64,000 bases of DNA from Octopus vulgaris (taxonomy: Eukaryota), in contig OX597814.1 of NCBI GenBank assembly GCA_951406725.2, positions 42,532,001-42,596,000 of the forward strand. Direction: 5' to 3'. Below, one piece after another: positions 24,025 to 63,380 of this stretch (the first letter of the stretch is position 1; each line of letters starts with the position of its first letter). Made by a program: the position numbers and the translations under genes. The notes beneath the pieces are model-generated. The model was not told the DNA's origin and did no database searches. It saw only the letters and a program-made list of their open reading frames with translations.

Positions 24025-24452
24025 TTATATACATATTAGAGGGAAACCACTATGTGGACATACTTATGCAAGAAATAGATCCGCTATGGTCTCACCACTA
24101 AGAAATGTTCTCACCAAAAAATTTAGCAAAACAACCAAAACGTAATCAAGCAAGACAAAAGAAAAAGCAATAAAAATATGGATTATTCGCATACATGTTT
24201 CACTATTACCATATCACGAGTCTAGCTCGATTACGTTTTGGTTGTTTTGCTAAATTTGTGTTGAGAAAATTTCTTATTGGTAAGATCCATAGCGGATCTA
24301 TTTCTAGCATATGGGTGTCCACATAGTGGTTTCTCTCTAACATGTATATAATACAATTTTACTGAAACTTCAGTTTTATTATATGCTAGACCACTGGTGT
24401 GAAATCGATGTTAATTAAATTAATATCAAATTTCTCACCCTCATTTTAAATC
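24025..24452. mobile_element. Inverted pLTR-like element: ~130-bp arms plus structured 3' terminus
   Basis: Arms 24025-24156 and 24220-24349 are reverse complements. The spacer holds GAAACAUGUA (HHR 3' half, minus strand). The right copy continues into the CTAGACCACTGG...ACCCTCA terminus. Confidence 0.7.
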
Positions 24453-24485
24453 AAAATGTATATATATATATATATATATATATAT

Positions 24486-24773
24486 ATAACGTAATCACTT
24501 GACTGACCAGACCATCAGATGTTGCTACACATCGCTGGTCACAATGCGTTCGCATTGTTTTAGCCTTCGAACGAGCAGGCCAACAAAAGCGAGCAGGCCA
24601 ACAAAAGAAACTGGGAGAAAGAGTACAGCAGGGATCACCATCTCCTGCTGGAACCTCGTGGAGCTTTAAGGTGTTTTCGCTCAATAAACACACACAACGC
24701 CCGGTCTGGGAATCGAACCCGCGATCCTCCGACCCAGAGTCAGCTGCCCTAACCACTGGGCCAATGCGCTTCC
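24486..24773 (-). mobile_element. tRNA-derived SINE, family C
   Basis: Head GGAAGCGCATTGGCCCAGTGGTTAGGGCAGCTGACTC...GGTTCGATTCCC has clear A and B boxes. Internal 18-bp tandem duplication at 24572-24607. Lies within (TA)n. Confidence 0.85.
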
Positions 24774-25007
24774 ATATATATATATATATATATATATATA
24801 TATATATATATATATATATATATATATATATATATATATATGTATATATATATATGTATATATATATATATATATATATATATATGTATATATATATATA
24901 TATATATATATATATATATATATATATATATATATATATATATATATATATATATATATATATATATATATATATATATATATATATATATATATATATA
25001 TATATAT
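24774..25007. repeat. Long (TA)n microsatellite (~230 bp)
   Basis: Directly visible, few interruptions. Confidence 0.97.
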
Positions 25008-25017
25008 ATTTTTTTTT

Positions 25018-25869
25018 GATACTTTGATAGGTTTCGGCCATTATTGGCCCAGGCCATGTCTAACTTAATAGCACCACCTGGTGAAGTCTTTCAAGTCAGA
25101 ATTTGGGCACTATGGCCCACTCAAGTAGAGAGTTATTGTTTACAGAGACATATCCGGGTGTAGGGGGTTTATCCGGGATTTCTTGAAGGAATCTGTCCAA
25201 AGACTTCTTGAACCCTATAGGGTCAGTTTCTGTTTTAATGTGTTTTGGTGTAATGTTAAAGAGAGCGGGGCCAATTGAGGTGAAATAATTGTGCCGTATG
25301 GTTGTTATGAGATGAGAGTGCGATTTTTGTTTTGGGCGGATGGCACGGGACCCAAGCCTTGGATGTACCTTAAAGGTGATGCCAACATCATTTGGGCAAT
25401 GCTGATGGAATATTTTCCACATCATGCAGATGATGTAGCGCTCACGACGACGTTGGAGAGAATAGAGTTTTAGCTTTTCTAGCCGACCCCAATAGTCGAG
25501 GCCTGTCATACCATCTATCTTTTTTGTGATTGCCCTTTGACGTGCTTCAACTTTTATGATACCTTGTATTGTGTGGGGAGACCACAGTGGACAACAGTAT
25601 TCAAGGTGGGGTCGGGCAAAAATGGAGAAGAGAAGGATAATGGTGTGGATATCTCTCGACTGGAAAGTTCTGAGAATCCAGGAACACATTCTGCGGGCCA
25701 TGTCAACTTTGGTGTTTATATGAGTGGCTCAGCTTACGTTGTTGTCCACAATTACTCCCAAGTCTCTGATGTTGTTGGACGCCGCGAGAGTTTCACCTGA
25801 AGGAAGGGAGTATGGGAGTTTCAGGGCATCCTCTTTTCCAAAGTGGATTAGCTCAAATTTATCCTCGTT
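25018..25869 (-). mobile_element. CR1-group LINE, 5'-truncated, best-preserved copy
   Basis: Open 201-aa stretch ARPHLEYCCPLWSPH...YWGRLEKLKLYSLQRRRERY, upstream IRDLGVIVDNN. Intact 3' tail. Confidence 0.92.
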
Positions 25870-26264
25870 ATATATTTATATATATATATATATATATAAC
25901 ACTTGCATACATAAACTCACACACATATACACACATACCCACATGTATTCATATATGTATCTACACGCACACACACACACTCACACACACACACACACAC
26001 ACACACACACACACACACACACACATATATATATATATATATATATATATAAACACCCAAAGATATGCATATATACACTCACACACATTTGTTTGTGCGA
26101 TCCACATACATGTAGATACATGCGTGTATGCAAATACGCATACTTACCCAGCCCGCTCTACTCACCGAACACACACATGTATACGTACATCCACACTTGC
26201 TTCCTCGCACACATACATCTTCTGGCGACCCAATTAGAGCTACGGATCACTACAACCAATAACT

Positions 26265-26516
26265 ATTTACATTATTTACATTATTTACAGTTGACAGATC
26301 TTTGTCCTCATCTTGTTGTTAACAAAACGTGTTGGTTGATATACCCTCCAGCCTTCATCGGGAGGCTTAGGGGAAATTTCGAACCTGGGTCCTCATTCCT
26401 AAGGTATTTTTTGATGGTGTTATTATTATTATTATTATTATTATTATTATTATTATTATTATTATTATTATTATTATTATTATTATTATTCAGGTCACTG
26501 CCTGGAATCGAACTCG
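26265..26516 (-). mobile_element. B-box-headed repeat with (AAT)n spacer and hammerhead-like body
   Basis: Minus strand: GAGTTCGATTCC..., (AAT)n, then a body with CCGAUGA-A-GGCUG...CAACC-AACAC (mutated HHR). Confidence 0.6.
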
Positions 26517-26529
26517 TAATGTAATGCTA

Positions 26530-60584: not shown

Positions 60585-60648
60585 AATTTAGCTTCATATT
60601 TCTTCAATTTAGCTTCATATTTCTTCAATTTAGCTTCATATTTTTTTC
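60585..60648. repeat. 21-bp tandem repeat x3
   Basis: AATTTAGCTTCATATTTCTTC repeated, third copy imperfect. Confidence 0.85.
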
Positions 60649-61354
60649 ATTTCATGAAAGCTTAACGATCTTCATTTAATAACGTACTAAGTAACTTCAC
60701 ATCATTCAAAATTTAACTTATTCTCTATATAAATACATAATTATACTATATGAGAATTTATAAGAAATAAATTCTACTTAAGCAAAGTTATTGATTTCAT
60801 TCATTTTCTTGTGTATCCAAAGAGAATGTAAAAGATATGTATTCATCTCTCATCCAACCCACCCCTTGGAGATTCACTCGTCAAAGTTCTCTTTGCGTTA
60901 TTTTCTCTCCAAACTGACCATTATTTATTCCCAATAAATTAACATTTCCATGCGGCGGAAAGTAAACGTTAGGCAATTCTAATTACATTACATAAAACCC
61001 ATCTAAATATGCATTAAATAATTTATTTTCGCTATGGTTATTTAGTGCGTACAAATTAAACATTCCACAGGCAGAATACGTGTATGTGTGTGAGAGAGAG
61101 GTGGGGGCGGAGGGAAAGAGTATGCATATATATATGTGTGTGTGTGTATACATATATATGTATATATATATATATATATATATATATATATATATATATA
61201 TATATATATATATATATATATATATATATATATGTGTGTGTGTGTATGTATGTATATATATATATATATATATATATATATATATGTGTTTGTGTGTGTG
61301 TGTGTGTATGTATATATATATATATATATATATATATATATATATATATATATA

Positions 61355-61397
61355 TTTAAGTTTCAGCTCAGAGCTGCGACCATGCTGATGCACCGCC
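61355..61397 (-). mobile_element. Tail-only LINE/SINE fragment
   Basis: Minus: GGCGGTGCATCAGCATGGTCGCAGCTCTGAGCTGAAAC. Confidence 0.6.
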
Positions 61398-61589
61398 GTT
61401 TTGCGCTACACTGTTATTACTAAGAGCCTCCTCTAATATGTGGCACTTGATGAAGAATTGAGTTTGATATAGCTACCCTCATTTATATATATAAATGAAT
61501 ATGTATATATATATATATATATATATATATATATATACATAAATATATAGGCATGCATATATCTATCTACATCTCTCTATGTGTGTAGC

Positions 61590-61725
61590 GTCACGCGTGG
61601 CTGAGGCGTACGAAGCTTGCTTCTAAACCACAGTGAGGCATCGTCGGCAAGTGTCCTCTACTATAGCCTTGGGCCGACTAAAGCCTTGTGAGTCGATTTG
61701 GTAAAGGCAACAGAAACAAGCCCCT
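61590..61725 (+). mobile_element. SINE family A, degraded 5' half
   Basis: gtggctg...agcttgcttc...ggcaagtgtcctctactatagccttgggccgactaaagccttgtgagt. Confidence 0.75.
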
Positions 61726-61759
61726 CTAATTTGTTGATTTCAGCAATCACTATCCTATA

Positions 61760-63062
61760 TTTGCATATCTTTTGTCTGCTCGAATCAACTTATCTACTTG
61801 TTGGCAATCGCATTGCAGATGGTTTCTCCTCATTGCCAACTGTAATATATATATATATCCTTTTTTAGAAGCAACAAACTCTACGTTGTTCTGACGGGCC
61901 GCCGGCTGGCTGACCGCTTCACCGAACATCTACGAGATTTTCGGCTATGTGTTCGCGTCGCCCGTCATTCCCGCTTGGCCAACCAAAACCACCTCTAGTA
62001 TCTCCGTTTTTGGACTCGCCCTACACCATGGATCCTCACACTCTCGATTCCGTCAGAAACAGGGTTACGTATTCAGTCTGCAGACCGTCTCTGCAACCTC
62101 CTTAGTAAACAATCTTTATTTTATCCTATCTTATATCCACACAGTTTTTTTTACGCTGTTATACTCTTTTTTTTTTCGATTTGTTATCGTTTTTTCCGTC
62201 GAATTTTTTAATTCAAAAATAAAATGTTTAATTGTATTAAAATTTTATATTTTTTATAATTGTGCTAACTTCTGTTATTCTTTTTATTTTTTATCTTTTA
62301 TCAGTAGTTTTGTAATTTCTTATTAATTAATTTTGGTTTTTTTCATTTTTTACCTTTCCCCGTTTCCCCTATATTTTATAAATTTTTTAAAAATCTTATT
62401 TTACATACACACACGTATATATATATATACACACACACGCACACCCACACACATGAGCGCACATATATTTCCCATACATCACGTACTCTTCCCACACACA
62501 TCATGCACATACATGCACACCCATACATACACGTGCGCGCATACACACCGCACATACACACACATACACATGTGTGTATGTGTGTATATGGGCGCGCACA
62601 AAGAAGAAACATTCAACTACACAAAAGACCGCTCTTCTTACCATGCAGCTGTATTCTTCCTACCTTAACAGACGCAAAATTCACTCATACATACACATAT
62701 AAACAGCCAACACTACACACATACAGCACACACACATACATACACCTGCATGCGCACACATACTCACACACATACACATTGATGTCTCCTTTTCCTACAC
62801 TCTCCTGCCTTAGAAATAACTTTTTCTTTACCCATTCTCTTCCGGTCAATTCAACATGTAACCATATGTGGGTCGTTGGCGAATCCTCACCTCCGTCTTC
62901 CTTTTGTCTTGGACTATCCTCTGTCTCCTGTTTCTGAAGAAGAATTTTGCTCGAAACGTAATACTACTTTTCCTTCGTTCCCTGAACGTGTGCTTATACT
63001 TTGCATGTACCACGTCCTCGCGTTGTATTTTCTTGTGTTTTTCTTCGATTTTTTTTTTGTAT
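61760..63062 (+). mobile_element. Penelope-like element 3' end: GIY-YIG remnant, low-complexity UTR, hammerhead
   Basis: VIY.IS...LYVVLTGRRLADRFTEHLRD...VARH...ISVFGL...YVFSLQT (61830-62110). HHR at 62930. Linking the two across the microsatellite-rich UTR is inferred. Confidence 0.72.
62930..62964 (+). ncRNA. Minimal type-I hammerhead of a PLE pLTR
   Basis: GUUU-CUGAAGA-A-GAAUUUUGCUC-GAAA-CG-UA-AUAC: intact core, palindromic ACGU helix III, weakened helices I and II. Confidence 0.55.
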
Positions 63063-63380
63063 TAATTAATTATATATATATATATATATATAATTTCAAC
63101 AATTGAGGGTAACATTAATTAATTATTAATCAATTTCACCAAGTGTTCAGTATGCAAAGGGACCATTTAAGGCGAATTCAAATTATTACATTATATAAAA
63201 GGGCTTAGTAAAGTAAATTACTTTGCCGCATACTGAACTCATTAGAAATAGCAGCCAAAAAACTTTTTTAAAGCTATTTCTAATACTTAAAGAAAATCTC
63301 TCTCATATATAGTGTTTGCTTAATTCAACTCACAAAAGTTTGGGGGTAAGGACATCAATAAATCAAATGCTAAGGTTATT

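Follow-up and report, generated by a model that had tools for sequence, protein, structure and literature searches.

The DNA analysed here, called the window throughout, is a stretch of 64,000 nucleotides of Octopus vulgaris (contig OX597814.1, positions 42532001-42596000) from a microsatellite-rich genome of 2.8 Gb. It contains four small elements, F1 (24025-24451), F2 (54839-55301), F3 (43467-43952) and F4 (63090-64000, minus strand), none of which has an open reading frame (ORF). By self-BLAST of the window, F1 to F3 are fold-backs and F4 is a 546-bp tandem. A preliminary description had regarded them as sequence-unrelated hammerhead elements that end in one RNA structure. As judged from sequence comparison, F1 to F4 are diverged families of one old hammerhead retrozyme lineage, and they share a real, family-wide RNA module. 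We propose that this module could bind the reverse transcriptase (RT) of a Penelope-like element (PLE) and set its start sites.

Read 5' to 3', the module begins with the 5' strand of helix P0 (RGUGG), followed by a side hairpin, the 5' arm of helix P1, a large loop that holds hairpins and insertion site A, the 3' arm of P1, the 3' strand of P0 (the linker CCACU), hairpin P4 (GG, an AU-rich part and CC), CU and insertion site B. The F1 palindrome spans 24025-24351. Its inverted arm (24025..24215, minus strand) starts at end A and holds the P1 5' arm, the P0 5' strand (24091-24102) and the 3' half only of a hammerhead (24192-24201). The F1 sense arm (24220..24451, plus strand), with end A near 24350 and end B near 24451, carries the P0 5' strand (24276-24280, mutated in the window copy), P1 (24303-24312/24381-24390), the linker CCACU (24391-24395) and P4 (24396-24439), then CU. 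In F2 the inverted arm (54839..55070, minus strand) has a hammerhead at 55007-54941 with its core mutated to CAGAAGA in the window copy, and the sense arm (55070..55301, plus strand; end A near 55207, end B near 55301) contains the P0 5' strand (55101-55105), P1 (55127-55135/55232-55240), the linker (55241-55245), P4 (55246-55282) and CU. The inverted arm of F3 (43467..43836, minus strand) runs through a tail remnant, the unit start, a hammerhead (43648-43584, core CUGACGA), the P0 5' strand and end A, with the true P1 5' arm at 43506-43518; its sense arm (43832..43952, plus strand; end A near 43863, end B near 43952) has a small hairpin P3 at about 43874-43887, the mutated P1 3' arm (43899-43905), the linker, P4 (43912-43937) and CU. 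F4 is present as a complete 546-nt unit (63090..63635, minus strand) with a hammerhead (63428-63385), the P0 5' strand (63290-63282), a long side hairpin, P1 (63238-63228/63155-63145), the linker ACUU, P4 (63140-63108) and CU, end A lying near 63192 and end B near 63092. A second tandem F4 unit (63636..64000, minus strand) is 99.7% identical to the first.

The sequences cited in the preliminary description lie where it placed them, and the long stems of F1, F2 and F4 as well as all four GG..CC-CU hairpins are present. The long stem of F3 had been misassigned: GCAUAG/CUAUGU is a product of mutations in the window copy, and the family has CUAGCAC/GUGCUAG with the linker UCACUGG. The same sense had been claimed for hammerhead and fold, which in the DNA is true of F4 only, since F1 to F3 carry a minus-strand hammerhead in the inverted arm. 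Half of the hammerhead is deleted in F1 and its core is mutated in F2; intact copies have the hammerhead upstream in the same sense. The fold is 3'-terminal in the DNA copy but not in the RNA, as tandem units continue for about 250 nt beyond it; the second tandem F4 unit shows that the RNA continues past end B.

The four window segments fold better than shuffled sequences (z -5.0, -3.3, -3.1 and -4.5), and the minimum free energy structure of the F2 segment as cut is a different fold. A 12-mer search with 2 mismatches in the window alone gave 19 against 13.5 expected, which is not significant. A loose structure-only descriptor was unspecific, with 12 window matches against 0-9 in shuffles, and missed F2 and F3. 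Because the window-only tests are weak, the signal rests on family data. A first look at the genome yielded 3,042 candidates for F1, 1,120 for F2, 1,690 for F3 and 1,613 for F4 (40 scored each), and genomic F4 copies are 97-99% identical. F1 to F3 have the common pattern CUAG-R-Y-CACUGG...CCCU. The pattern CTAGRNCACTGGN{20,50}CCCT has 5,919 genome matches versus 43 for the reversed control; a looser pattern without CTAG has 4,528 versus 2,120. These matches count units, not insertions, F4-type linkers fall in neither count, and the sequences viewed were the first 100 listed per pattern.

The 320 motif candidates in the fetched loci form at least 86 clusters at about 86% identity. Thirty rows were chosen by eye to span the whole module, with truncated, chimeric and chance rows excluded, and align collinearly in MAFFT with a mean column identity of 46%. 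Alignments from the hammerhead to the end gave z scores of 9.9 (F2-F3), 8.5 (F2-F6), 7.3 (F1-F5), 4.4 (F1-F4) and 3.2 (F1-F2), the weakest being F1-F3 (0.3) and F2-F4 (0.7). The families are about 53-64% identical in gapped global alignments, and a tree of the hammerhead-to-end stretches has three deep groups. All four are collinear from hammerhead to end, and the term sequence-unrelated has to be withdrawn: on alignment evidence they are homologous families and not independent convergences. Thousands of small non-coding elements in the genome share the predicted fold.

Pairing was tested on 21 named pairs in the sequence-only alignment of the 30 rows against 500 shuffles, with row kinship ignored. 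Paired cells amounted to 81% versus 75.8% in shuffles, double-change cells to 49 versus 22.5 and the covariation score to 0.248 versus 0.169, and for each of these measures none of the 500 shuffles reached the observed value. Slid-partner controls were 24-46% paired. A P0 helix of at least 4 Watson-Crick pairs is found at the homologous place in 25 of 30 rows versus 0-6 at six other offsets; the cognate mean is 4.5 versus 3.6 for non-cognate partners, and none among 20,000 permutations of the partners is as high as the observed sum. Compensatory changes occur in both P0 and P1 (GUGG/CCAC, GCGG/CCGC, GUAG/CUAC, GCAGUA/UACUGC). The rows with variant P0 pairs, namely GCGG/CCGC (F6), GUAG/CUAC (locus L169), AAGU/ACUU (F4) and GCAGUA/UACUGC (an F4 relative), were found not with the pattern but through homology or at neighbouring loci, and they sit on separate branches of the tree. 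The ensemble probability of P0 is at least 0.75 in 16 of 30 rows. The only conserved unpaired bases are one U and the final CU. From the predicted pairing, P1 and P4 very probably form, and P0 forms with somewhat less certainty. Pairing of an upstream RGUGG with the linker, which had been suggested before, is thus backed by covariation.

Hammerhead motifs occur in copies of six families, at 178-256 nt from GAAAC to P4. Read by eye, all six are of type I, with the core CUGANGA or CCGAUGA, GAAAC, stem I and a stem III that is palindromic, like that of dimer-type animal hammerheads (PMC4209133). The base of stem II is non-canonical, and no Rfam hammerhead matched in the four elements scanned. The units may self-cleave. 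Tandem unit lengths are about 455 nt for F3, 546 for F4, 505 for F5 and about 490 for F6, the four families that these lengths cover. With the F4 monomer opened at its predicted hammerhead cleavage site, P0 begins at 94, site A lies at 193 and site B at 293, leaving 252 nt between site B and the next predicted cut. F4 sequence is present in four contig sets guessed to be RNA, whose contigs show neither strand, ends nor circles.

Insertions in (TA)n consist of two opposed arms that end at site A or site B, and ends cluster at these two sites in five families. Site A lies in the P1 loop, at modal positions 37-48 nt before the GG of P4, and site B lies 8-19 nt after CCCU in F1, F2, F4 and F5 (n = 14, 8, 10 and 8); the distance between them is 87-105 nt. 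Among 89 loci with a scored end, some of which overlap and which were taken with flanks of 1.5 kb, 29 carry the two ends on opposite strands, 1 carries both in another arrangement, and the rest show a single end (B in 40, A in 19). Exact-match mapping of F2 end A and F3 end B was distorted by mutations in the reference copies, and locus-wise scoring and junction reads were used for them. Site A often shares a TA repeat of 6-8 nt with the target in F1, F3 and F5 and is more scattered in F4. The inverted 5' arm and the two fixed 3' ends of a PLE-type insertion are present. The optional extension between the two ends of a PLE is called the tail (PMC3846280, PMC8557442); its length of 30-40 bp is not seen here, the A-B stretch being 87-105 nt. 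By analogy, the retrozyme A-B stretch is a long version of the Penelope tail. The earlier notion of a conserved cis-element linked to Penelope-type insertion is supported, as the module brackets both fixed insertion ends and the suggested closing helix covaries; the role in RT recognition or priming then attached to it is kept here as a proposal.

A Hydra-type RT motif has 1,723 genome matches versus 18 in the control, and our incomplete sampling for an autonomous partner covered Neptune-like and Hydra-like families, not the Naiad, Poseidon and Nematis ones of the genome. Neither of two young Neptune-like families with two ORFs (775 and 781 aa; RVT_1 and GIY-YIG) has the fold, and one of them has a 39-nt tail. 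These young intact families are at loci L191, where a canonical hammerhead was not seen at the 3' end, and L243, which has CCAAT/TGACGTCA-rich repeats in the 3' untranslated region (UTR). Six families, most with long open ORFs, are called Hydra-like on the basis of the motif GLYRDD and their visual resemblance to Hydra-1_Obim, not of a tree; they follow the same two-end rule as the retrozymes, with tails of about 70-165 nt, and lack the fold. One of them shows a partial likeness, ending in CCC-AUGGU-GGG, a hairpin and CCC-CU about 12-15 nt before end B. The tail of one young Hydra-like family contains CCACTGGT, at about 54 nt ahead of end B, and a relative has ACCTCCGGT in its place. The CCACUGGU in the tail of a Hydra-like family is not kept by its relative.

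A covariance model was built from the 3' half of the module. All four window elements score 35-62 bits, by construction, and the next window match scores 22.9 bits. In 76 autonomous-element loci, the 15 matches at E < 0.01 are separate retrozyme insertions or an embedded F4 stub; two of the 15, both opposite to the ORF, were not read individually. Apparent partner links at L208, L209, L248, L284, L292 and L316 were discarded as separate insertions in neighbouring (TA)n, and a decayed Neptune-like family from the window and 20 older Neptune-like loci were checked and set aside. PLE protein matches in the motif loci read belong to neighbouring or fused elements, and the units are without an RT and GIY-YIG ORF. 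In the part of the PMC8557442 supplement available, where line breaks may hide matches, three extended linker strings had 0 matches and one had 1 unrelated match. Target and tail length point to a Hydra-clade element as the probable partner.

Several loci of this sample are of separate interest. At L088:1300-3384 (minus strand), the GIY-YIG region of a third, C-rich Neptune-like family runs directly into an F3 arm with no TA spacer between them, possibly owing to a template switch. A Hydra-like family (L286:4538-4750, L287:4073-4291, L369:2649-2721 and 8047-8119) has a two-armed F4 stub in its microsatellite-rich 3' UTR and spread this stub along with its own copies. The two-armed hammerhead element of L214 is probably no retrozyme but a stump of the Hydra-like, ORF-bearing element in L308, whose ends it matches. 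In three Hydra-like families (L349, L305 and L265) the tail appears to pair with sequence just 5' of the start codon, with end B enclosed in a loop; this pairing was predicted for two of the families and seen by eye in the third, and might link priming to translation. In L219, L228, L230, L231 and L236, a non-autonomous repeat captured and amplified a two-armed F1-type stub with a degenerate P1 3' arm; we take this repeat to be Helentron/DINE-like.

The window holds further features. A possible degenerate fifth module copy lies at 5844..5909 (plus strand; 22.9 bits, rough E 0.025, a weak match), housed in a worn repeat unit of about 400 bp at 5500-6246 with CUGAUGA at 6081. Two more palindromic hammerhead-bearing elements of other families, at 26261-26689 and 42890-43084, are without the module, and one is beside (TTA)n. 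A decayed Neptune-like PLE with inverted arms occupies 17400-21150 (17967-18323 on the minus strand); a QxGAYDCG-motif region precedes its RT ORF and is common to more than 100 genomic relatives. The motif resembles Ulp1/C48 cysteine proteases, and Pfam gave no match.

We give a probability of about 0.6 to the idea that the module is an RT-binding and start-site scaffold for a Penelope-like RT supplied in trans. The core would be a junction closed by P0, the side hairpin and P1, with P4 right beside it; on either flank of this one core, sites A and B would lie on AU-rich single strands. A Penelope-like RT-endonuclease acting in trans would bind the module RNA, cut both strands of (TA)n and start copying at two fixed sites. 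One DNA end would prime at A, aided by a UAUAUA-like run, and the other at B, yielding back-to-back arms and the 90-105-nt tail; copying on multimeric or circular RNA would give tandem arrays. In Poseidon PAc, reverse transcription in vitro starts at the two ends of the tail, which are internal in the RNA and lie in a stem-loop, and the PAc protein is a predicted dimer (PMC11167929). It is tempting, although doubtful, to suppose by analogy that retrozymes evolved a telomerase-RNA-like scaffold whose junction binds a Penelope-type RT dimer and offers a short UA-rich template to each of the two active sites, capturing the enzyme by structural mimicry without the long terminal pseudo-repeat (pLTR) of the partner.

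Several results weigh against this proposal or the fold beneath it. The earlier expectation that autonomous PLEs end in the same fold failed, as none of the eight autonomous families with readable ends (two Neptune-like, six Hydra-like) does so. A local sequence signal would likewise explain why end B keeps to the base of the hairpin. The number of pairs showing a double change, 9 versus 8.0 in shuffles (173 of 500 reach it), is not above chance, and RNAalifold gave no consensus pair on the gappy MAFFT alignment. The ensemble probability of P0 is below 0.15 in 10 of 30 rows, four F4-clade rows among them. F3 is without the side hairpin, and the three-way junction is therefore not universal. 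The 30 rows are related and hand-picked, most found via a pattern that fixes CACTGG and CCCT. G-U versus A-C cells, at 22 versus 13, favour the sense strand only weakly.

The fold might instead serve the life cycle of the RNA (circle or monomer stability, hammerhead folding, ligation or export), with the ends set by local AU-rich sequence. The whole F4 monomer as a circle is predicted to be highly paired (-144.7 kcal/mol), as was reported for coral and mussel retrozymes (PMC7229834), and autonomous elements use two ends without the module. This explanation is unlikely in our view, however, as it does not account for one topology with both ends in the same register across families that are about 53-64% identical. 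The motif may also be a relic of common descent without present function, its helices persisting as the families are AU-rich and recently diverged. All families are homologous, the covariation counts are not tree-corrected and one of five measures is not above shuffles; but the double changes in a long-range helix of 4-6 bp fall on separate branches while flanking loops change length freely, and we give a relic very little credence.

A signal acting at the DNA level is a further option: the GIY-YIG endonuclease would recognise the quasi-palindrome ACCACTGGT together with the tail, or these would fold in single-stranded cDNA. According to the summary in PMC11167929, the D. virilis Penelope endonuclease needed the tail to recognise plasmid DNA, and the CCACTGGT in the tail of one young Hydra-like family agrees with such a signal. 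It is nevertheless quite improbable: long-range covariation requires a single strand, the central bases vary (CCGCU, CUACU, UGCUC) with compensation upstream, and the relative of that family has ACCTCCGGT instead. A second self-cleaving ribozyme, which the preliminary description had offered as an option, is scarcely credible. Ribozymes are commonly built as a junction with a hairpin next to it; every unit, however, already has a hammerhead motif, nearly all conserved bases are paired, leaving one U and the final CU, and the four elements scanned singly against Rfam had no ribozyme match to E 10. The RT scaffold is the reading that we prefer.

Other classes were considered as well. A whole-window Rfam scan was dominated by microsatellite miRNA matches (among the best 150 of 252), hence the single-element scans; these gave matches below the gathering score only (miRNA, snoRNA, CRISPR, sRNA and RUF20). 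The Rfam models of HDV, twister, twister-sister, pistol, hatchet and SECIS had no match, in agreement with the first reading for HDV, twister, pistol and SECIS, and the module is absent from Rfam 15. For a tRNA-derived short interspersed element, six hammerhead-to-end stretches contain no box B and one box-A-like match, and ARAGORN found 0 genes. Helentron/DINE or DIRS termini were dropped, the inverted repeats being variable-length arms that end at a fixed site and the units being tandem. Our searches of the open-access literature gave no description of a covarying module bracketing both ends; subscription papers and Repbase lie outside this scope, and the supplements of Li et al. may list related families.

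If the structural mimicry is true, start-site choice in PLEs would for the first time be traced to a defined RNA determinant, one common to many families, and the module would be a portable signal that directs two-ended insertion into (TA)n. The module bears on how PLE RTs choose RNA and two internal start sites and on how animal retrozymes re-enter DNA. Dozens of divergent natural variants with mapped ends mark the helices and bases to mutate, which makes the proposal testable once the partner protein is known. Retrozymes as non-autonomous PLEs (PMC7229834; bioRxiv 10.64898/2026.07.22.740005) and the tail mechanism are already published.

Animal non-LTR (long terminal repeat) retrozymes are described as AT-rich units in tandem, each a few hundred nt long, without coding sequence and with a type I hammerhead, and have been proposed to be non-autonomous PLE derivatives (PMC7229834; bioRxiv 10.64898/2026.07.22.740005). 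The octopus units resemble them in being non-coding, low in GC, tandem and a few hundred nt long with a type I hammerhead motif. In the available text, Cervera and de la Pena (2020) and Li, Clavereau and Pollet (2026) describe neither a conserved non-catalytic module nor fixed insertion ends, and the latter state the mobilisation mechanism as open (bioRxiv 10.64898/2026.07.22.740005). Unlike a non-autonomous derivative of a named PLE family, the octopus units share no terminal region with any of the 8 sampled autonomous families whose ends were readable, and no matching pLTR was found. With the Poseidon PAc tail (Frangieh et al. 2024, PMC11167929) they share the inverted 5' arm, the optional 3' extension, the AT-rich target and two fixed ends that are downstream of the hammerhead and internal in the RNA. 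They differ in a tail of 87-105 nt instead of the 30-40 of PLE tails (PMC11167929, PMC3846280, PMC8557442) and in a covarying multi-helix module where PAc has one AC-rich stem-loop. They also have no ORF and, at site A, overlap the (TA)n over a short stretch, in contrast to PAc, whose priming involves no homology (PMC11167929). C-terminal EN+ PLEs of the Hydra clade (Craig et al. 2021, PMC8557442) likewise have a (TA)n target and a hammerhead near the 3' end. Unlike the retrozymes, no sampled Hydra-like family has P0-P1-CCACU-P4. In telomerase RNA, the CR4/5 three-way junction binds TERT. PLE RTs are sister to TERT (PMC8557442). The module has no sequence or Rfam match with CR4/5; as an analogy only, a small junction beside a single-stranded template may be regarded as a comparable RT-binding scaffold in both.

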